Source: Planctomycetota bacterium
GTDB taxonomy: Bacteria; Planctomycetota; UBA8108; SXIK01
NCBI GenBank assembly: GCA_965223265.1
Contig: OZ244999.1
Location: 8,992,001-9,056,000 of the forward strand
Reading direction: 5' to 3'
DNA: 64,000 bases
The number at the start of each line of letters is the position of its first letter. The stretch's first letter is position 1. This document shows positions 8,714 through 19,150 of this stretch, piece after piece. A program made the position numbers and the translations under genes. The notes beneath the pieces are model-generated. The model ran no database searches, was not told where the DNA came from, and was given only the letters and a program-made list of their open reading frames with translations.

Positions 8714-10012
8714 TTACGTCGTCGTGACCTGGTGCATGTGGACGTCTTGCTGTGGGAATGGGATTGAGATGCCTTCGGCATCGAATCGCTCCTTCACCGC
8801 GCGGGTCAGATCCCAATAGACAGCCCAATAGTCACTTGTCTTCGTCCACGGTCGGCAAACGAAATTGACCGACGAGTCTGCGAGTTCGTTCACCTTGACC
8901 ACGGGCGCGGGGTCTTTGAGGACGAGTTCGTGACTGGCGACAAGTTCCTCGAGGATCTTTTGCGCTTTCCCGATGTCGTCGTCGTACCCGATGCCAAACA
9001 CCAAGTCGACACGTCGCGTGTCGTTGCCCGTGATATTGGTGATGATTCCGCCCCAGATCGACCCGTTCGGCACGACTACATTCTGATTGTCCGGCGTCTT
9101 GAGTGTCGTCGAAACCAGACTCATCGCATCCACTTTGCCGGTCACTCCCGCGACGGTGACGACGTCGCCGATATCGTAGGGCCTGTAGAGAAGAATCATA
9201 ATGCCACACGCGAAGTTGCTGAGCGTGCCCTGAAGCGCGAAGCCAACGACGAACGCAACGCCGCCGAACGCGGCCAAAAGCGGCGTGATGTTCACTTCGA
9301 GCATCGACAGGGCAACGATCAGTCCGACGAAGAAAACGACTTTGCGTATGGTGGTGACAAAGAAATCTTTCAGCAGCGCTGAGACGTTGACACGCGACAT
9401 AGAAAGTGCCTTGGCGACGATCTTGCCGGCGATCGCAGCTAGGATCTTGAAAGCGATGAGGATGGCGACAAAGGCGGCGATGTTTTTAGCCCAGCGGATG
9501 CCACCTTCGGATGACAGTGCCCAGTTCTTCAGCGCGACCAACACCGCGCTCGGTTCCTTGACGTTTCCGAGTTCGATCGGACTCGAAACGGCGCCCATAT
9601 AATTCGAGAACGCGTTGGCTTCCTCTTCTCCGCCTTTGGATGTGAGTTCGCCCAAGACAGCCTTGAGCCGATCGGCAATTCGAGTGCGCTCGTCGGCCAG
9701 CGCCGTGATCTTCTCCATGATCTGGGACTTGGCGGCGGCATCCTCTGTCTTCATCTGCTGAACTTTTTGCGCGCTGATTTCGGAAGCCTTAGCCTTGAGC
9801 ACGCCTTTCCAAGCATCCGCGAGCTTCACGAGCTCGTCCTTGTCGAGTGGGGTCAGCTGAAGTTCCAGCTCTGCGAGGTCAATCGTCGGATCGGTGAGCC
9901 CTGGCGGCGGTGCATCCGACTGTGCGGCGAGCGGCGCCACTGTCAACCCGAGCGCGAGACCGAGGGTTCGCAACGCGCGACGGGTGCGATCGAAGAGGTT
10001 GCAATGTCTCAT
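8714..10012 (-). CDS. mscS: small-conductance mechanosensitive channel with an N-terminal exported helical extension
   Basis: GFALQGTLSNFACG, RPYDIGD, VVVPNG, RRVDLVFGIGY, GISIPFPQQDVH; signal peptide ending LAA|Q. Confidence 0.92.
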   Translation of the reverse strand: MRHCNLFDRTRRALRTLGLALGLTVAPLAAQSDAPPPGLTDPTIDLAELELQLTPLDKDELVKLADAWKGVLKAKASEISAQKVQQMKTEDAAAKSQIMEKITALADERTRIADRLKAVLGELTSKGGEEEANAFSNYMGAVSSPIELGNVKEPSAVLVALKNWALSSEGGIRWAKNIAAFVAILIAFKILAAIAGKIVAKALSMSRVNVSALLKDFFVTTIRKVVFFVGLIVALSMLEVNITPLLAAFGGVAFVVGFALQGTLSNFACGIMILLYRPYDIGDVVTVAGVTGKVDAMSLVSTTLKTPDNQNVVVPNGSIWGGIITNITGNDTRRVDLVFGIGYDDDIGKAQKILEELVASHELVLKDPAPVVKVNELADSSVNFVCRPWTKTSDYWAVYWDLTRAVKERFDAEGISIPFPQQDVHMHQVTTT

Positions 10013-10954
10013 GAGTTCCTCAATTCCTTACACCGTATATCCCCGTCAAGGCACTCCACTCGGGAAGCCTTGATCCTCCCAGCTCGTGCGAAGGGCTTCG
10101 ACGAGCTCCGTACTCCGATCAGAAGTGATCTGACCGTCTATCGACGCGGCGTACCGGCAGCGCGCCGCTGGCGTCGTTCCCGCCGACGACAAGCAAAAAC
10201 CCGAAATCGGATCTGGCAACCTGTTGTCTCGAGCTCTCACAGTGAGATCCCAAAGTTGCAGCGCCACCCTTCCTCGACGCCCTTGCAACTCTCCTGGTCT
10301 CTCATGACTCGCCACGGTTCGATGAAACGATACCTGGCGAAGTTGCTCCGACCACCAGTTCCAGCGCCAGCAGAATACTGACTAACCGCGGCGTCTGCAA
10401 GGGGGTGGGCGCGGCGCCACGGTCCGGGCTCTGGACCTGCTCGCGACGAGCTTCAGAGCCCATTTGGCAACCCGTTTCCGCAAGGTGGAGACGACTCTAG
10501 CGTAGCTAAACAATAGATCTCACCGAGGAGCCAAGAGGCCACTGGGGCGGTTTGAAAAAAGGGCCCCGCCACGTCGCTGTCGGTTCGGCGGGAAACCTGG
10601 CGATCGCGACGGAGCCGTCAACTTCTCATTCGCACGGCGATCGTCGGCACGGCTGAGTGCGCGGCGTGGCCGGCACTTGTAGGTCAGCTGGGTCGAGTTC
10701 GGCCGTTGCGATGTCATCGTAGCCATCGAGCGAGACCGTGCTATCGGGAGGTGCCCGACCTGGAGCCTCGCGATTCCTGACGCCTGAGAGCTGCCTGAGC
10801 GACGCCGGTCGTGCACTCGAGGCTGACGATTCTCGCTCGCCGTAGAAGTCCATGGAGGTCGCACGCGTTTGAGGAGTATGCCTGATCTCGGGTCGAGCTG
10901 GCAGCCGCGGCTCCGCCTTCGTTGGCCCCGGGCAGTGTTGGAACGGGCAGCTAG

Positions 10955-11368
10955 TCAATAGGCGTGCAACCGTTCTCGCAGCGCATTGGGATCGCAATCC
11001 TTGAGAACTAGCTCTCCCGCTCCAGCTGCGAGCACGTGAGCGACGAGCCGGGCGTCGGCGAACAACGACAGTGCGATCACCCGCGGTCGACTGGGTGATG
11101 TCGCGACATCTCGGATGACCCCCCGGAGCTGTGGCGACGAGACGTCGATCATCACGACGTCGGGCTTTCTCTCGAGTACGAGCCGGATGGCGTCCTGCGG
11201 GAGTGATCCTTCGCCGACAACGCGCAGTCGGTGATCGAGCTCGATGATCCCTCTCAGGCCGCGCCGGAACACTTCGTGCGGATCGCACAGTACGATGCGC
11301 ACGCCGGTTGGGCGCACGCCGGTTGGGCGCACAGCGGTTGGGCGAACGGAGGTCGGGCGGGCAGACAT
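10955..11368 (-). CDS. stand-alone NarL-type receiver (REC) domain protein without an HTH
   Basis: IVLCDPHEVFRRGL, VVGE, PDVVMID, VIALS, VLKD; ends right after the REC domain. Confidence 0.7.
   Translation of the reverse strand: MSARPTSVRPTAVRPTGVRPTGVRIVLCDPHEVFRRGLRGIIELDHRLRVVGEGSLPQDAIRLVLERKPDVVMIDVSSPQLRGVIRDVATSPSRPRVIALSLFADARLVAHVLAAGAGELVLKDCDPNALRERLHAY
11297..11356 (-). repeat. in-frame 15-bp tandem repeat x4 (encodes (V)RPT[S/A/G]) at the 5' end of the REC gene
   Basis: GCGCACGCCGGTTGG x2 plus two degenerate copies. Confidence 0.8.
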
Positions 11369-11693
11369 CGGGACACCGAAGGGATTGGGCGTGGGAGAAC
11401 GCCGTCGCTGCCCGCCCAAACGATGCTCCAAGCCCGATTCAGATCAGTTGACCACTCCGCCTCGAAGAGAAGAGATGACGCGTAATGACCACGTGTGGCT
11501 GAGCCGCGCGGTTCTCCGCGGCCACTTCTTCGCGTCATTGAGATTGATCGCAGCGTTCTCGCCGCCGACTCTACAGCTCGATCCGTGACGGCGCGATCGG
11601 GGATTGCCTGAACTCACCTAGTGATTCTCCCGACAGCGGACGCAACCAGTCGTCAAGCAGAGAGGGTCGTGTGGCCACCGGTGCGTCGCCCAT

Positions 11694-12347
11694 TCACTGG
11701 TCAAGCGAAGTGTATCCCTCGCGAATGGCGTACTTCGTTAGCTCGGCTATGCTGTTGAAATTGAGTTTCGCCATGATGTGTTGGCGGTGTGTCTCAATGG
11801 TTTTTGCGCTGACTTTGAGATCGAGCGCCGCCTGCTTTGTGGTCTTGCCCTCGGCCAGGAGTTGAAGGACTTCTCTTTCGCGCGGAGTGAGTTGATCGCC
11901 GCCGACATCTCGACCTTGTTCAAGTTTATGCACGTAGTCGTCGATCACGACGCCGGTGATCTGGCCGCTCAGATAGACTTGTCCGTCGAGTACTGAGCGG
12001 ATCGCATCCCGTAGCTCGTCGACAGCACAGTCTTTGAGAAGATAACCCACAGCGCCGGCCTGGAACATCCGGCTGACGTGGCTACGATCGGCGTGCATTG
12101 ATAGGGCGATGACTTTCGTTCGTAGGTCGAGGCCTGCGATCTGTCGCGCCGCCTCGACGCCATTGAGGTCTGGCATGCTGATGTCCATGACGACAATGTC
12201 CGGGTGCAACTCTTCGGTCAACTTGACAGCTGTGCGACCGTCGGACGCTTCGCCGACGACTTCCATGTCCGACTGTTGACTGAGCCAAGTGCGAAGGCCG
12301 TCCCGGACGATTCGATGATCATCGGCGATCAGAATTCGCGTAGCCAA
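11694..12347 (-). CDS. NarL/FixJ-family response regulator (REC + LuxR HTH)
   Basis: ILIADDH, PDIVVMDISMP, GYLLKD, LTPREREVLQLLAEG...KTIETHR. Confidence 0.95.
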   Translation of the reverse strand: MATRILIADDHRIVRDGLRTWLSQQSDMEVVGEASDGRTAVKLTEELHPDIVVMDISMPDLNGVEAARQIAGLDLRTKVIALSMHADRSHVSRMFQAGAVGYLLKDCAVDELRDAIRSVLDGQVYLSGQITGVVIDDYVHKLEQGRDVGGDQLTPREREVLQLLAEGKTTKQAALDLKVSAKTIETHRQHIMAKLNFNSIAELTKYAIREGYTSLDQ

Positions 12348-12655
12348 GTTAGATCTCCGTGTCGTTGTCTACCGGTTCCCTCTAAGCGAACGCCGGCAGA
12401 GGATGGAGGAAGGTCGCCACCGCTTTCGTGCTCTTTTGGTTGAGGGGCGCTGTGCGTGCCTGGGGATTAATCCGCGCGCGAGCAGGCGGCGCGGTGCGGC
12501 GGAACGTGGCGATAGGGTGATGGACGCGTTCTGCTTGGGAGCGCGCGCTTCGTTCCGAACGCCGAAATGTGGTAGAATCCTGTCCACGTTTTAATCTGTA
12601 TTGCGCGGCGACTGCGCCGTCAAGTTTTTCCCCCAGCCGTCAGGGCGAGACCGAG

Positions 12656-13315
12656 ATGCATCACGCCAACGACGAGGATTTGAGGGCGTCAGCGGAGGGC
12701 CGGCAGGTGGATTCTCGTCCTCTGGATCGAGTACGTGAGATCCTGATCGGTTCGCAGATGCGAGCGCAAGAACAAAACTTGGCGCGCTTCGAGGAGAGAA
12801 TGCTGCGTGTGGCCGAGGGTGTGAGAGAGGAGCTGTGTCGTCGCGTTGACGAGCTGTCTCGCCAGATGGCCGATCGAGTGGGGGTGCTCAGGTCTGAATT
12901 AGAGTCGGAGAAAAGCGGCCGCACTGATGCCACGGCGCAGATTCACAACGAGATCGAACAGCTGCAGCGTCTTCATCGCGAGGAAGTGGAGCGACTGCGG
13001 GATGAATCGATCCGGGCTCAGGGCCGATTCCAGGCGGAACTACAAGAGCGATGCGATCAGCTGAGGCGTGAGATTGAAGCGCAGCAGAAACTACGCTTCG
13101 ACGATCAGAGGCAGAGCATCGAAACACTCCGTTTCGACAAAATGGATCGAGTTGAACTGGCAAGTCTGTTGGCGGAGCTCGCTATGCGCCTTGACGAACA
13201 GCCGTTGGGTGTAGACGGTGTCACACCCCGCGTGGTTGAAGGGGATCGAGACGACGTTGGTCATAGCGAAAAACCTGCCGGAACCGAAGATGGTCGTGGC
13301 ATCCATCGACCGTGA
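12656..13315 (+). CDS. conserved coiled-coil hypothetical protein, first gene of the OmpA/small GTPase operon
   Basis: LDRVREILIGSQMR...KMDRVELASLLAELAMRL, with a heptad E/R/Q-rich middle; start set to ATG 12656. Confidence 0.75.
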   Translation: MHHANDEDLRASAEGRQVDSRPLDRVREILIGSQMRAQEQNLARFEERMLRVAEGVREELCRRVDELSRQMADRVGVLRSELESEKSGRTDATAQIHNEIEQLQRLHREEVERLRDESIRAQGRFQAELQERCDQLRREIEAQQKLRFDDQRQSIETLRFDKMDRVELASLLAELAMRLDEQPLGVDGVTPRVVEGDRDDVGHSEKPAGTEDGRGIHRP

Positions 13316-13511
13316 TATTGCGATGCCTACGCCGATCTCGGACCAGTGATGACGCTGCGCGGATTCTCGCCGCGAGTTTCGAATGTCGATTGTGGTTGGC
13401 AAGTTGAAGTATTGACTGAGTCTTTTCGCGACGAGTCGTTTGGCGGTAGGTCGATTGGCCGACTTTCGTAAGCGACGAGAATTGAAAGAAGGATTCTGCG
13501 CGGCGATTGAG

Positions 13512-15851
13512 ATGGTAGAAGACAGTCGATCCAACAACCATCGGTCGAAACCGTCGGCCTCCGAGCAGGCGCCTGTTGACGACGAGATCGAGGAGCTCCG
13601 TTCTTTGCTCTTTCAGGAGGAGCGAAATCAGCTCGATCGTATCTCTCGACGGTTGGACGACCCGCACACTCGTGCGGTTGAAGTCGGCCGCGTTCTTGGC
13701 GAAGCGATCGATCATGGCAAGCGCCACGATGGCCACTTGGCGGAAGTGCTGCAGCCCGACGTCGACCAGGAGATTCGAAAGAGTGTGCGGCGAGACCCGG
13801 ATGTGTTCGCTGACGCGATTTTTCCTGCGCTCGGCCCGGCGATTCGCAAGTCGATCGCGGATTCTCTGCGCCGTCTTGTGCAGGTTTTTCACCAGACGCT
13901 GGAACATAGTCTTTCACCTCGATCACTGCGTTGGCGACTGGAGGCGTTTCGCAGCGGACGGTCTTTCGCCGAAGTCGTGTTGATCCATATTCTGCCGTAC
14001 CGAGTGGAACAGATGTTTCTGATCCACCGGGAATCTGGGCTCTTGCTGCGTCACGAATACGCCGACACCGTCAGCGTTAGAGATAGCGACCTCGTCTCCG
14101 GAATGTTGACAGCGATTCGAGACTTCGCGACCGACTCCTTCGAGCTCGACGACGGCGCATCGCTCGATGCTCTACGGGTCGGCGAACTGACCGTGTGGGT
14201 CGAGAGCGGCCCCGCCGCGATTCTGGCGGCCGTCATTCGCGGTGCACCGCCGCAGGAGCTTCGCGTTCGTTTGCAGGCGACGCTCGAAGATATACACCGG
14301 GAATTCGGCGAACAGCTGTCAAGTTTCGACGGACGTGCGGACGCGCTGCAGACGGTGGGGCCGGCGCTACAAGAGTACATGCTCGAGTCGACACCGGAAC
14401 CGGTCCCGGAGGCCAGACAAGGGCGCGTCGGAAAGGTCGCTGCTGCGATCTGCGCTCTTCTACTGGTTGTTGGTCTCGCCTTTTGGACGTATCGCTCATG
14501 GGATGAGTCGAGGACCTGGGCGAAGTACATCCGAGATCTTGAAGAGGCACCAGGACTTGTTGTTGTGGATCACGGCCGGGACTCGGACGGATACTTCGTG
14601 CGAGGTCTTCGCGACGCGCTCGCCGTCGACCCGGATAAGATCGTGAACGGTGGAATGCTGGCACGTTCTGAGTGGCGTCCGTACTACTCCGTCGAACCGG
14701 AGATTGTCGTCGAAAGGGCGGTTCAGCTGCTCGAGCCGCCGCCAACAGTGACTCTCGACGTCGACGGTGAAACGCTCAAGATTTCTGGACGCGCGCGGTC
14801 CACGTTTATTGAGTCTGCGCGCCGACTGGCACCAACGATCCCAGGCATCGCCCGGGTTGCAGACAGCGAGCTCGCAGTCGTGGATCAGGAGGCGCGGATT
14901 CTCGACGCCGCAAACGGGAAGCTTCGGCCGCCGGAGACGGTCGCGATGTCTCTCGATGGCGGCATACTCAGGCTCCGCGGCAAAGCGCCAGAGCGTTGGA
15001 TCGAATCCGCTGCAACTCTTGCCCGTACCGTCGACGGAGTCGACGACGTTGACTTGAGTGAGCTTCAGATCGATGGACTGAGTGCTCGTCTCTTAGCGCA
15101 GGCGATAACCCTCCTCAAACCGCCCGAAAGCGTCGAGCTGTCGTTGACCGGCGGACGGCTCAGCGCCTCGGGATCGTGTCGCCAGGAGTGGCTCGAGGCC
15201 GCCCGTGCGCTTGTCCGTGTGCTCCCGGATGTTTCTGATTTTGACACAGCCCGGCTCCGCGTGGCGGATATCGACCAGGTGCTTCTAGGTCGCGCCGAGC
15301 TTCTCCTGTTGCCGCCCGAGACCGTGCGATTAAGTGTCGAGGAGCGAGTTCTCAGGATGACCGGAGAAGCTTCCCATGATTGGGCGTCGCGAGCAAAGCG
15401 CTTCGCGGGGCGGATTCCCGAACTCCTCCGCGTCGACGCTTCACGACTCATCGATGTCGATGTGCGTTACTTGATCGCCGCCAAGGATCGAATCGAAAGC
15501 GTACGGTTCAGCTTCGCACGCAACGCGAGCGATCCCTCCGGCACGGCCGCCCAGTCGCTTGCCGAAGTCGCGGTGCGAATCGACGAGGTGCGGAGTTACG
15601 CGCGACGCGTGGGCGACGGCGTGGTGGTCGAGGTCGTCGCCTATACGAACGACACCGGCGACGACGACTACAATCGACGCTTGGCGCTCGCTCGCGCGGA
15701 GCGTATCGTCGATCTCCTGGTTGAGCAGGGCGTTCCTCGAGAACTGCTTTCCGCTCGCGGGCATGGCGCGGCATCTTCCAAGGGTGTGCGCAAGACACGC
15801 CGTGATCGCCGCGCGGAGCTCCGTGTGATCTTAACAAGCAAGACGCCGTGA
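13512..15851 (+). CDS. membrane protein: cytoplasmic helical + longin/roadblock-like domain, one TM, four BON-like repeats, C-terminal OmpA-like domain
   Basis: MFLIHRESGLLL...DSDLVSGMLTAIRDF; TM VAAAICALLLVVGLAFW; four LxPPx(T/S)V repeats; OmpA motif NRRLALARAERIVDLL...DRRAEL. Confidence 0.8.
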   Translation: MVEDSRSNNHRSKPSASEQAPVDDEIEELRSLLFQEERNQLDRISRRLDDPHTRAVEVGRVLGEAIDHGKRHDGHLAEVLQPDVDQEIRKSVRRDPDVFADAIFPALGPAIRKSIADSLRRLVQVFHQTLEHSLSPRSLRWRLEAFRSGRSFAEVVLIHILPYRVEQMFLIHRESGLLLRHEYADTVSVRDSDLVSGMLTAIRDFATDSFELDDGASLDALRVGELTVWVESGPAAILAAVIRGAPPQELRVRLQATLEDIHREFGEQLSSFDGRADALQTVGPALQEYMLESTPEPVPEARQGRVGKVAAAICALLLVVGLAFWTYRSWDESRTWAKYIRDLEEAPGLVVVDHGRDSDGYFVRGLRDALAVDPDKIVNGGMLARSEWRPYYSVEPEIVVERAVQLLEPPPTVTLDVDGETLKISGRARSTFIESARRLAPTIPGIARVADSELAVVDQEARILDAANGKLRPPETVAMSLDGGILRLRGKAPERWIESAATLARTVDGVDDVDLSELQIDGLSARLLAQAITLLKPPESVELSLTGGRLSASGSCRQEWLEAARALVRVLPDVSDFDTARLRVADIDQVLLGRAELLLLPPETVRLSVEERVLRMTGEASHDWASRAKRFAGRIPELLRVDASRLIDVDVRYLIAAKDRIESVRFSFARNASDPSGTAAQSLAEVAVRIDEVRSYARRVGDGVVVEVVAYTNDTGDDDYNRRLALARAERIVDLLVEQGVPRELLSARGHGAASSKGVRKTRRDRRAELRVILTSKTP

Positions 15852-15864
15852 CGAGCTTGCAGCG

Positions 15865-16368
15865 ATGATCCAGCGTAAAGTGTGCTTGCTCGGGGCATTT
15901 GCCGTCGGCAAGACGAGCCTCGTGTCGAGATTCGTTCACGGTTTCTTTTCGGATCGTTATCACACGACCGTCGGCGTCAAGATCGACAAGAAGCTGCTTG
16001 CAGTCGACGGTGAGGACGTTCAACTCATCGTCTGGGACCTTGCTGGTGAGGACGATCTTGTGCCCCTGCGTACGTCGTATCTTCGTGGCGCGTCCGGTTG
16101 CCTCGTCGTTGTTGACGGGACGCGGGGCGAGACGCTCGATGTCGCTCGCGATCTATGTCAGCGCGTGAAGAGCGCAGTCGATGATTGCGAGATCGTGTTC
16201 GTTCTCAACAAGTCGGATCTCAAGGGCGAATGGGAACTAGCCTCGGACGTCCGAGAGACGTTGACGGCGGACGGTTACGACTCGGTCGTCTCGAGCGCGA
16301 AGTCTGGCGACGGTGTAGAAGCGGCGTTCGCGATTTTGGCCAAGAGAATGTTGAGCCGTCGTCCGTGA
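15865..16368 (+). CDS. Rab/Ras-like small GTPase (prokaryotic Rup-type)
   Basis: G1 GAFAVGKTS, G2 TTVG, G3 WDLAG, G4 NKSD, G5 SAK in a 167-aa protein. Confidence 0.93.
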   Translation: MIQRKVCLLGAFAVGKTSLVSRFVHGFFSDRYHTTVGVKIDKKLLAVDGEDVQLIVWDLAGEDDLVPLRTSYLRGASGCLVVVDGTRGETLDVARDLCQRVKSAVDDCEIVFVLNKSDLKGEWELASDVRETLTADGYDSVVSSAKSGDGVEAAFAILAKRMLSRRP

Positions 16369-18062
16369 GAGAGTTGCCCAAAGTCGTGAAGGATTACGTC
16401 GGCGGAAGCGCGACGGAGCGCTGGGCACCGGCCTTTCTCTCGCTCGACGGGCGCGGTCGTGTGCTCAAGGCGGGGGGTGATCTCGGGCGCTACGGGCTTG
16501 GCGATACCTACATAGGAGACGCTGTTGTCGGTCGATTGGCTTGCCTTTTTGGCGCTTTGCCACACGCATCGCCGACAGCACTCGTTCTGCCTCGGGTTGA
16601 GCTTGAGAACGGGCGCTTTGCCGATGTTCACATCTTCACCAGCGACGAGAGCTGTGGCGACCAGGACCGGCGTGGCCAGGACTGGGTCGTGCTTCTTGAT
16701 GCGACGGATGCGACACAAGCTCAGCAACGTCTGCAGCAAAGCTCGAATGAGGCGAGGCTATTGCGGTCGCGGCTGCGAAAGGTGGAAGCGCGAGCTTTAC
16801 ACCCTGTCACGAGTGAGCGGCGTGCGCTCCTGGCCCTCGAGACGGTCGTGTTGGAATCAGTCGACGGCGATGAGTTGATCGCCTGCGGCGCGCTACCAGC
16901 TTGGTTTCGACGTCTCGCGGGGATGGAGAGAGAGTGTGTCCGATTCGACGCGAAGTTTTGGATGCGATTTCCTTTCGTTGAGAATTTCCTCGCCGATGCG
17001 CGCCAGCTTTGGCAGCAGGCTACCGGCGGGCGGCTCGAGTCGGGCCCGTGGGTGGAGGTGTCGGAGAACGGCGAGGAGGTCCTGCTTCATGCTTCTGCAG
17101 TGAGACGTGACGGCGCCCGATTTCTACTGATCGAGAGACGCGAGCGAGACGCGGCGATGCAGCAGCGCATCGTGCAAGCGGCACGGAGTCAACGGCTGAC
17201 GACGCAGAAGGTTTTGGACCGAGAGCAGGAGGCGAATCGCTCCCTGCGCCAAGAACGACGCTCGCTCGAGCGATCTGTCATCGAGCATACTGAAGATCTT
17301 GAACGAATGAACGCTGAGCTTACCCGCGAGATCGTCGAGCGCGAACGTGCCGTGGAGCTATTGATTGAACACCAGGAGCGCCTGCGCTCGCTCGCCCTCG
17401 AGCTGTCGCGAACTGAGGAATGCGAGCGACGTCGGATCGCTCAAGGGCTTCATGATCAAGTCGGACAAACGCTCGCTCTGAGCAAAATGAAGCTGGCGAG
17501 CATGCGGCAGACGAACGACGACGCTGGCTTGATTCAAGAACTCTCAGTCGTCTATGACCTCCTCAGCGAAGTCGTGGAGTTCACCCGATCCCTCACGTTC
17601 GAATTGGGATCTCCCCTTCTCTACGACCTTGGGCTCGAACCGGCGCTCGATGGTTTAGCAGAGCAGATCGCGGCCCAATTCGATCTACAAGTTAGTTATC
17701 GGGATGACAGCGCGCCGAAACCTCTGAGCGAAGAACTGAAGGTCGTACTCTTTCAGATCGTGCGTGAGCTACTCTTCAACATCACGAAGCACGCCAACGC
17801 ACGCAGCGTCCAGATTGCATCGCAGCGGCGTGATACCGACGTCGAGATTCGGGTTGTCGATGATGGGGATGGTTTTGACGTAGGCGCCGTTTTGGCGGAC
17901 CCGTCGCGAGAACGAGGTTTCGGACTTTTCAGTATTCGCGAGCGTCTCAAGTACCTCGGCGGTGAGGTGACGATCGAGTCCGAACCTGGACGTGGAACGA
18001 CCGTCAGCCTCATTGCGCCCCTGGACGGCGAAGGCGATGGGGCATCTCCGCCGCAGCCTTGA
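16365..18062 (+). CDS. cytoplasmic sensor histidine kinase (HisKA_3 + HATPase) with PAS-like N-terminal domains
   Basis: GTG start overlaps the GTPase stop (GTGA); ERRRIAQGLHDQVGQ, ELLFNITKHA, DDGDGF, GFGLFSIRER; no TM seen. Confidence 0.9.
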   Translation: MRELPKVVKDYVGGSATERWAPAFLSLDGRGRVLKAGGDLGRYGLGDTYIGDAVVGRLACLFGALPHASPTALVLPRVELENGRFADVHIFTSDESCGDQDRRGQDWVVLLDATDATQAQQRLQQSSNEARLLRSRLRKVEARALHPVTSERRALLALETVVLESVDGDELIACGALPAWFRRLAGMERECVRFDAKFWMRFPFVENFLADARQLWQQATGGRLESGPWVEVSENGEEVLLHASAVRRDGARFLLIERRERDAAMQQRIVQAARSQRLTTQKVLDREQEANRSLRQERRSLERSVIEHTEDLERMNAELTREIVERERAVELLIEHQERLRSLALELSRTEECERRRIAQGLHDQVGQTLALSKMKLASMRQTNDDAGLIQELSVVYDLLSEVVEFTRSLTFELGSPLLYDLGLEPALDGLAEQIAAQFDLQVSYRDDSAPKPLSEELKVVLFQIVRELLFNITKHANARSVQIASQRRDTDVEIRVVDDGDGFDVGAVLADPSRERGFGLFSIRERLKYLGGEVTIESEPGRGTTVSLIAPLDGEGDGASPPQP

Positions 18063-18277: not shown

Positions 18278-19150
18278 ATGCTGGAAATCGTCAAGGAGAC
18301 CTGGCGCAACCTTTGCCGAACCGGCGATGCACATCGCGGTGTGCCGCCAAGTTTTCTCATCGTTGGCGCCCAGAAAGCGGGAACAACCGCCCTCTTTCGG
18401 TATCTAGCCAAACACCCGTGCATCAAACCCCCGGAAGTGAAGGAGATCGACTTTTTCAGCTGCACGGCTCGTTATAGCCGCGGCGAAGAATTCTATCACT
18501 CTCACTTCCCGGCTGCCTCTTCTCTACCGGACGGAGGCTCGACCTTCGAGGCGTCACCGAGCTATCTCGTCAACGAGTCTGCCCCTGCACGTATCCACGC
18601 CTACAACGCGCGTATTCGTCTCGTCGCGATTCTGCGCGACCCGGTCGAGCGTGCTTACTCGGCATGGAACATGTACGAGGAGAGATTTCGACGCGATAAG
18701 AACTGGCTTAGGGAGTGGACCCGTCGCTGTGAGGGGTGCGCCGCAAGGAAGGGTGTGAGGACGCGCCAACTCACGCGCTTCGACTCCTTCGAGGCGGTCA
18801 TCTCTGAAGAGGAAGAGGCCATCGCCTCGGGCGAGGCGATTGAGGCCCCCGTTCTGCTGCATGGGTTCTATTCCGAGCAGTTGCAGCGCTACTTTGAGTA
18901 CTTCGATCCAAAGCAGATTCTTGTCGTCGAAAGCAGTGCACTCAGGGATGATCCGGTAGAGTGCCTCGGCGAGGTTGAGAGGTTCCTGGCTCTACAACCG
19001 CACGACTGGTCGCAGGAGGACACCGCTCCTGTGTTCGAGGGCACGTATTCTGACCCTATCCCGGAGGCCGCGGCTGCCCGCTTGCGCGAGTTTTATCGAA
19101 CTCACAACGCGGCGCTGTACGAGCTTCTTGGGCAGCAATTCGACTGGTGA
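18278..19150 (+). CDS. PAPS-dependent sulfotransferase (heparan sulfate sulfotransferase-like fold)
   Basis: 5'-PSB loop GAQKAGTT, KEIDFF, EASPSY, 3'-PB LRDPVERAYSAW. Confidence 0.9.
   Translation: MLEIVKETWRNLCRTGDAHRGVPPSFLIVGAQKAGTTALFRYLAKHPCIKPPEVKEIDFFSCTARYSRGEEFYHSHFPAASSLPDGGSTFEASPSYLVNESAPARIHAYNARIRLVAILRDPVERAYSAWNMYEERFRRDKNWLREWTRRCEGCAARKGVRTRQLTRFDSFEAVISEEEEAIASGEAIEAPVLLHGFYSEQLQRYFEYFDPKQILVVESSALRDDPVECLGEVERFLALQPHDWSQEDTAPVFEGTYSDPIPEAAAARLREFYRTHNAALYELLGQQFDW

Follow-up and report, generated by a model that had tools for sequence, protein, structure and literature searches.

We conclude that a gene cluster of a Planctomycetota bacterium is, as judged by its gene content and motifs, a complete Group 1 Rup module whose output is of the two-component type, and that the cytoplasmic domain of its membrane protein has a predicted longin fold. 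The cluster lies in a stretch of 64,000 nucleotides (nt; OZ244999.1, positions 8,992,001-9,056,000), here called the window, and all coordinates below are window positions. It encodes a coiled-coil protein, a bitopic membrane protein, a small Ras/Rab-like GTPase and a soluble sensor kinase, all on the plus strand (as are the features within them), and a divergent NarL-type response regulator. The neighborhood of Group 1 Rup GTPases ('Rup1' in later papers) was described in silico by Wuichet & Sogaard-Andersen (Genome Biol Evol 2015; PMC4316618). The section of that article on this group lists a coiled-coil protein, a protein with a domain of no known type, a transmembrane (TM) helix and an OmpA domain, a GTPase whose G3 motif has no glutamine, and an output protein that is either a cyclic di-GMP (c-di-GMP) enzyme or a histidine kinase and carries an invariant glutamine in its N-terminus. 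The section also draws from gene context the same system-level hypothesis that we discuss here. All four genes, the G3 motif without glutamine and the invariant output glutamine (Gln271 of the kinase) are found in the window. The gene set is thus already described; our models would add to it the longin assignment, a docking surface for the GTPase and a PAS-like adaptor.

We consider it reasonably probable that a wall-anchored longin dimer docks and regulates the GTPase, and that the GTPase acts through PAS-like domains on the kinase and thereby on phosphorylation of the NarL-type regulator. The membrane protein would be anchored to peptidoglycan through its periplasmic BON-like repeats and OmpA domain and would present the longin-like domain on the cytoplasmic side, probably as a dimer. 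A conserved helix face of this domain would dock the N-terminal strand, the interswitch strands and switch II of the GTPase. We infer that the membrane protein holds the GTPase at the membrane and controls its nucleotide state as an exchange factor for guanine nucleotides (GEF), a GTPase-activating protein (GAP) or a GAP co-factor. We also infer that the GTPase, when active, exerts its effect on the tandem PAS-like domains of the translationally coupled, soluble HisKA_3 kinase, carrying a signal from the envelope to the kinase, which would set the phosphorylation of the divergently encoded regulator.

A predicted longin fold in the membrane protein

The membrane protein (13440-15851) has 803 amino acids (aa) in the open reading frame (ORF) of the window and 798 aa in the database gene call P0001. 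Cytoplasmic helices and the longin-like domain (aa 186-320; 13995-14399) are followed by a TM helix (aa 330-351; 14427-14492), four BON-like repeats and an OmpA-like domain. The TM helix is the only hydrophobic span of the protein (Kyte-Doolittle, top 19-residue mean 2.43). An AlphaFold2 (AF2) model of aa 60-345, built from a 33-row alignment, has a mean predicted local distance difference test (pLDDT) score of 72.7 and a predicted template modeling (pTM) score of 0.50; within the longin-like unit the block means are about 62-94 and mostly 86-94. This unit has the topology b-b-a-b-b-b-a-a (b, strand; a, helix), with strands at fragment residues 129-137, 143-148, 185-188, 191-197 and 201-208 and helices at 157-175, 213-235 and 242-256.

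Two structure aligners agree on what this unit resembles. Foldseek returned 13 matches in the PDB at E <= 0.001, and those listed include Mon1-Ccz1 with Ypt7 (5ldd_B, 8.9e-5), MglB (1j3w_A, 5.8e-4), a TRAPP subcomplex, and FLCN-FNIP and Rag complexes. VIA-align, which is independent of Foldseek and was run against 48,161 representative chains, placed longin or roadblock domains in 50 of the 50 entries listed. These include the VAMP7 longin domain (4afi_B; Z 13.4, root-mean-square deviation 2.3, 118 residues aligned), CPLANE (7q3d_C, Z 13.4), Sec22 (Z 13.0), Mon1-Ccz1 (5ldd_E, Z 11.3) and MglB (3t1r_A, Z 9.4). The alignments cover about 118-133 residues of longin domains versus about 100 of roadblock proteins, and are longer for the longin domains because both C-terminal helices also match. 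A preliminary description of this DNA had proposed a longin or roadblock fold for the segment, and the AF2 topology, Foldseek and VIA-align agree in predicting one; we regard a longin fold as well supported at the level of models. At the level of sequence, the family profile matched solved-structure sequences through the OmpA part only, and the ESM Atlas returned unnamed clusters only, all with scores under 0.9.

The periplasmic part is built of binding modules. The OmpA-like peptidoglycan-binding domain (aa 728-788; 15621-15803) has a Pfam OmpA match of 2.1e-8 (34.8 bits vs a cut-off of 27.2), and the family profile matches solved OmpA-like domains, for example 6jfw_A at 1.8e-15. The four 64-aa repeats (14700-15509) have PPxxV motifs at aa 433, 497, 561 and 625 and a Pfam BON match of E 2.5e-4 that is below the cut-off; PF04972 is precomputed on two homologues (P0032 and P0066). 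Homologues of about 580 aa are without the extra repeat blocks. From its BON-like and OmpA modules, this part would seem to contact membrane and peptidoglycan rather than a small ligand. Some database names of homologues hint at a MotB or stator reading, the basis of which is the OmpA domain only.

The GTPase and its modeled docking on the longin domain

The GTPase gene (15865-16368; 167 aa) begins 13 nt past the stop of the membrane-protein gene, and its product matches Pfam Ras (7.6e-29, aa 5-163). All five G motifs read in the preliminary description are confirmed by comparison with 71 family members: G10/G15-K16-T17-S18, T35, W57-D58-x-x-G61, N115-K116-x-D118 and S144-A145-K146 are conserved. 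Among solved structures its best matches are to Sec4, Rab1, Rab8 and a Thorarchaeota Rab (about 1e-20), and the best 60 of 724 solved matches are of the Rab type, with no MglA among those 60. The G3 motif is DLAGE, as had also been noted, with glutamate at residue 62 and no glutamine after DxxG; across 72 GTPase sequences this residue is E in 47, A in 8 and Q in 7. Because the GTPase is without the catalytic glutamine, we propose from its sequence that GTP hydrolysis needs a partner.

We modeled a complex of two longin cores, the GTPase, GTP and Mg, in which the longin dimer was assumed by us. The complex scored 0.79, versus 0.40 for the best of 3 controls, which supports the binding of GTPase and longin domain that the preliminary description had envisaged. 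Contact agreement between runs was at least 89%, and partner pLDDT was at least 87. On the longin side the modeled contacts are made by the b1-b2 loop and the long conserved helix, from both copies; on the GTPase side they are made by residues 1-5, 36-42, 53/55/57 and 71-76, which belong to its N-terminal strand, its interswitch strands and the last part of switch II. The interface is more conserved than the rest of the protein on the longin side (0.85 vs 0.70; permutation p 0.006) and on the GTPase side (0.84 vs 0.64). We think that a longin-domain dimer probably docks the GTPase at this modeled interswitch and switch II surface.

Conservation of the module

The N-domain of the membrane protein belongs to a large family. 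Among 8000 scored candidates, 1806 proteins matched it at E <= 0.001, and the best 120 homologues are 47-57% identical to it, come from several phyla and are typically about 580-600 aa long. A search with the 159-aa core found 4258 cluster representatives at E <= 0.001 and 947 at E <= 1e-30 among the 1.84 billion searched. In a set of species-representative genomes, 574 of 599 pattern matches were confirmed (at least 574 stretches). We took as loci the 80 best of these 574, all from other genomes and picked by the membrane-protein N-domain only, and searched their six-frame ORFs with the window proteins at E <= 1e-5.

The rest of the module was present in most of these loci. The coiled-coil protein was matched in 76 of the 80, the periplasmic/OmpA part in 74, the GTPase in 71 and the kinase N-terminus in 70, versus 20 for the NarL-like regulator and 2 for the kinase core. 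Most of the missing genes are due to contig ends. Where at least 2 kb of sequence is available downstream (64 loci), the GTPase is present in 63 and the kinase N-terminal domain in 62; the coiled-coil gene is present in 74 of the 76 with at least 1 kb upstream. In 62 of the 64 the GTPase gene is directly downstream of the membrane-protein gene on the same strand, so the gene order is indeed conserved elsewhere. The phyla represented are Acidobacteriota, Verrucomicrobiota, Cyanobacteria, Chloroflexota, Desulfobacterota, Nitrospirota and Planctomycetota. Such an arrangement goes far beyond what chance would give.

We therefore regard it as extremely improbable that these genes are unrelated neighbors and that the longin resemblance is an accident of modeling. 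The domain has no sequence-level family match, and overall model confidence is moderate, as such an accident would have it. However, gene order is kept across many phyla, the domain is about 50% identical between phyla and has thousands of related cluster representatives, and two independent aligners put only longin or roadblock domains on top.

The module is present once in the window's own genome and is patchy among relatives: 8 of 41 genomes (own included) have a match at E <= 0.001, and 6 of those at E <= 1e-60. Several loci depart from the usual layout. In three loci from Dehalococcoidia (L002, L003 and L013) the membrane-protein ORF has 338-347 aa and no OmpA part, and the coiled-coil gene was not detected; the GTPase and PAS-like genes are still downstream. 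This layout fits a lineage with a different envelope. Three Desulfomonile loci (L012, L016 and L023) are rearranged, with the PAS-like gene upstream of the coiled-coil gene, and L012 has its GTPase gene downstream of the membrane gene on the opposite strand. At L043:5009-7924 two tandem ORFs match the longin-containing N-domain (6e-64 and 3e-76), possibly by local duplication.

Predicted PAS-like domains of the kinase and their outputs

The kinase gene (16365-18062) has a GTG start that overlaps the TGA stop of the GTPase gene (GTGA), and its product, like the database gene call P0121, is 565 aa long. The kinase core (17424-18026) consists of HisKA_3 (aa 354-415; 1.3e-9 to 1.5e-9) and HATPase_c (aa 462-554; 5e-14 to 5.9e-14). 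No hydrophobic span was found in the kinase (19-residue Kyte-Doolittle, maximum 1.36) and it is therefore soluble; a soluble HisKA_3 kinase had been noted in the preliminary description, with no mention of the two PAS-like domains that we propose for its N-terminus. The N-terminal ~340 residues had no Pfam match at E up to 10. A word-indexed homologue search with this region returned 2 proteins, one of them the query, and homologues were therefore drawn from the fetched loci. Matches in other loci split the region into two units, A and B. An AF2 model (69 rows; mean pLDDT 87.1) has two PAS-like folds with a long helix behind each (A, about aa 2-140; B, about aa 150-290; 16368-17234). Foldseek matched this model to a LOV-PAS-HK protein (6pps_A, 1.6e-7) and also to PpsR, FixL and DosP. 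We predict from the model that the N-terminus is a pair of tandem PAS-like domains.

One residue of this region bears on how the GTPase might be switched off. Gln271 (codon 17175-17177), where the helix behind PAS-like B begins, is the sole invariant column in the 69 sequences, and PAS-like A ends in the same motif. An alternative to regulation by the longin domain is that this domain does no more than provide a passive platform at the membrane, like Ragulator in the case of Rag GTPases, and that the kinase N-terminus is a GAP that supplies its glutamine in trans. The invariance of Gln271 and the general lack of the G3 glutamine in the GTPase family would fit this alternative, as would the use of longin or roadblock domains as pure platforms in some of the solved complexes among the structural matches. 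The section of PMC4316618 on Group 1 likewise proposes that the output N-terminus, not the membrane protein, is the GAP, with the residue supplied in trans. However, Gln271 sits in a long helix that runs on into the kinase dimerization helix, the same motif behind PAS-like A fits a structural role, and the modeled interface spans switch II and the strand after switch I, a surface that is nucleotide-sensitive rather than neutral. We consider a passive platform unlikely.

The PAS-like units vary in their arrangement and in what follows them. A and B are fused in the window kinase and in a few other loci, and B alone stands ahead of an output domain in many. Separate A and B genes, one of about 130 aa directly after the GTPase gene and then one of about 375 aa, occur in 15 loci, mostly from Nostocales (L018, L021, L029, L031, L034, L045, L047, L050, L055, L056, L058, L065, L068, L070 and L081), at about 9170-10800 in most of them. 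The outputs fused to a PAS-like domain in 86 ORFs are diverse: HATPase_c (34), HisKA (18), HisKA_3 (2), REC (9), Hpt (9), HD_5 (4), SpoIIE (3), and EAL, GGDEF, a sigma-54 activator and a cyclase (1 each). A constant trio (the coiled-coil protein, the longin-OmpA protein and the GTPase) and a constant PAS-like adaptor with interchangeable outputs have the pattern of an input module.

In the window, the HisKA_3 and HATPase_c kinase adjoins a regulator with REC and GerE domains. This NarL-type regulator (11694-12347, minus strand; REC and a GerE/LuxR helix-turn-helix) matches Pfam Response_reg at 8.7e-31 and GerE at 7.4e-20. The GTPase, a PAS/HisKA_3-type kinase and a NarL-like regulator occur together in 4 of 5 loci of related genomes, and the fifth has the coiled-coil and membrane genes only. 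Locus L091 (G002:C239), from a related genome, has the coiled-coil and membrane genes; about 8.9 kb of sequence downstream of them yielded neither a GTPase nor a kinase. As judged by the pairing, the NarL-type regulator is likely the cognate of the kinase.

Information could also flow in the opposite direction: the PAS-linked kinase would sense and act on the GTPase, and the GTPase, through the longin domain, on the wall-anchored protein, making the envelope the output. A comparable proposal exists for actinobacterial conservons, in which the GTPase is argued to be the output in the part of PMC4316618 that deals with them. PAS domains are typical sensors, and the periplasmic part of the membrane protein has no obvious ligand-sensing domain, only the BON-like and OmpA modules. 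In contrast, many unrelated enzymatic and DNA-binding outputs are fused to the PAS-like domain, whereas the membrane protein and the GTPase do not change; such a combination of variable outputs with constant partners is the signature of a shared input. Moreover, the NarL-type regulator beside the kinase, here and in 4 of 5 related loci, would be an ordinary downstream target. Reversed flow thus seems to us quite improbable, and we continue to favor a signal that runs from the envelope to the kinase.

Other features of the locus

The first gene of the module encodes the coiled-coil protein (ORF 12569-13315 with a GTG start; likely ATG at 12656). It has no Pfam family above the cut-off, and neither this protein nor the GTPase has a hydrophobic span (19-residue Kyte-Doolittle). 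Pfam and NCBIfam gave no family for the membrane-protein N-domain, the coiled-coil protein or the kinase N-terminus. An N-terminal motif common to the coiled-coil and membrane proteins was considered and rejected (BLASTP E = 11). Promoter and terminator scans gave no excess over shuffled sequence (1 vs 1.2 and 9 vs 6.2, respectively).

The co-directional cluster, the 13-nt gap, the GTGA coupling and the divergent regulator all lie where the preliminary description had placed them. An MscS gene to which it drew attention is indeed nearby (8714-10012, minus strand); an MscS homologue was found in 0 of the 80 loci, and we reject mscS as part of the module and regard it as an unrelated neighbor. 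Between mscS and the NarL gene is a receiver-only protein (10955-11431, minus strand; Response_reg 2.8e-13). The DNA for its N-terminus has a 15-nt tandem repeat (11297-11359; 4.2 copies, 87% matches) that gives a repeated RPT-x-V peptide. Downstream of the kinase gene is a gene of the sulfotransferase family (18278-19150, plus strand; Sulfotransfer_1 2.5e-12).

Discussion

Several points weigh against the mechanism that we favor. The AF2 model of the N-domain is moderate overall, with poorly defined helices ahead of the longin domain, and the N-domain matched 0 Pfam families, Robl_LC7 and Longin included, at E up to 10. The dimeric state of the longin domain is an assumption. The score of the complex may derive from likeness to solved complexes such as MglA-MglB, Ypt7-Mon1-Ccz1 or Rab-TRAPP. 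Of 80 solved complexes, 58 attain the mark used for this score, as do 2 of 110 mismatched pairs; these counts hold only roughly here because alignments of our own making and a riding ligand went into the model. The 80 loci were chosen as the best matches and so are not randomly sampled. The invariance of Gln271 may be structural rather than catalytic, because the residue is placed in the signaling helix and its motif recurs in PAS-like A. Finally, we found no experiment on any member of the module in the full-text literature, a search whose coverage leaves out subscription journals.

The preliminary interpretation as a whole is partly supported. The four-gene neighborhood, the missing G3 glutamine and the idea of catalysis by a partner all predate it, being present in the section of PMC4316618 on Group 1. 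Domains that this section leaves unassigned would be a longin fold and tandem PAS-like domains according to our models. We found no mention of a longin or roadblock fold for the membrane-protein domain in the full-text literature, of which subscription journals and supplementary tables were outside coverage. The window copy further differs from that description in having four BON-like repeats and a HisKA_3 output with a NarL partner. More tentatively than for the docking, and as an idea that may well prove wrong, we suggest that the longin domain is a true regulator of the nucleotide state of the Rup1 GTPase, as GEF or GAP, and that it serves as a transmembrane reporter of envelope state to kinases, c-di-GMP enzymes and others.

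As modeled, the module resembles the MglA-MglB polarity switch of Myxococcus and Thermus (PDB 3t12, 1j3w), in which a small Ras-like GTPase has as its partner a roadblock/longin-superfamily dimer whose helices contact the switch side of the GTPase. However, MglB is a small soluble Robl_LC7 protein, whereas the domain described here sits within a wall-anchored membrane protein and gives better alignments with longin domains, and the best solved relatives of the window GTPase are Rabs. No Robl_LC7 match was found within the cluster (Pfam). Two canonical Robl_LC7 (MglB-type) genes lie close together elsewhere in the same genome (C1:6568380-6570207), about 2.4 Mb from the cluster. Because these two genes are present, the genome probably also has a classical MglA/MglB-type module.

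Eukaryotic Rab GEFs with longin domains offer a second comparison. Mon1-Ccz1, TRAPP, CPLANE Fuzzy-Inturned and DENN form paired longin platforms for Rab-type GTPases, and they are the top structural matches of the bacterial domain. In contrast to these cytosolic multi-longin complexes, the bacterial protein has a single domain in a bitopic envelope protein, its identity to the eukaryotic domains is only 7-17%, and exchange activity would have to be carried over from them by analogy.

Actinobacterial conservons (CvnA-D; Mfp in mycobacteria) similarly encode a GTPase, a roadblock-superfamily partner and a histidine kinase together. In the part of PMC4316618 that deals with them, a conservon comprises a membrane HAMP kinase, a free Robl_LC7 protein, CvnC and a GTPase of the MglA family. 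In the window module, by comparison, a soluble, PAS-linked kinase and a Rab-like GTPase accompany an OmpA-type membrane protein that carries the roadblock-like domain. No match to HAMP or to DUF742, the family to which we take CvnC to belong, was found in the cluster (Pfam).

With the longin reading, a large, unnamed family whose domain was a 'conserved unknown' would gain a specific hypothesis in biochemical terms. The reading would also revise a printed claim, since the section of PMC4316618 on Rup GTPases states that they are not coupled to MglB homologues, and they would no longer be without roadblock-type partners. According to the portion of a preprint that treats Rup1 (bioRxiv 10.1101/2024.02.28.582541), these bacterial GTPases group with eukaryotic Rab, Ras, Rho and Ran and with Asgard RasL. 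The domain may thus offer a bacterial counterpart of the eukaryotic longin-based Rab regulators. If this is true, then the longin-GTPase partnership of eukaryotic Rab activation, as in Mon1-Ccz1, TRAPP and DENN, would also work in bacteria, where it could couple the peptidoglycan layer to signaling in the cytoplasm.

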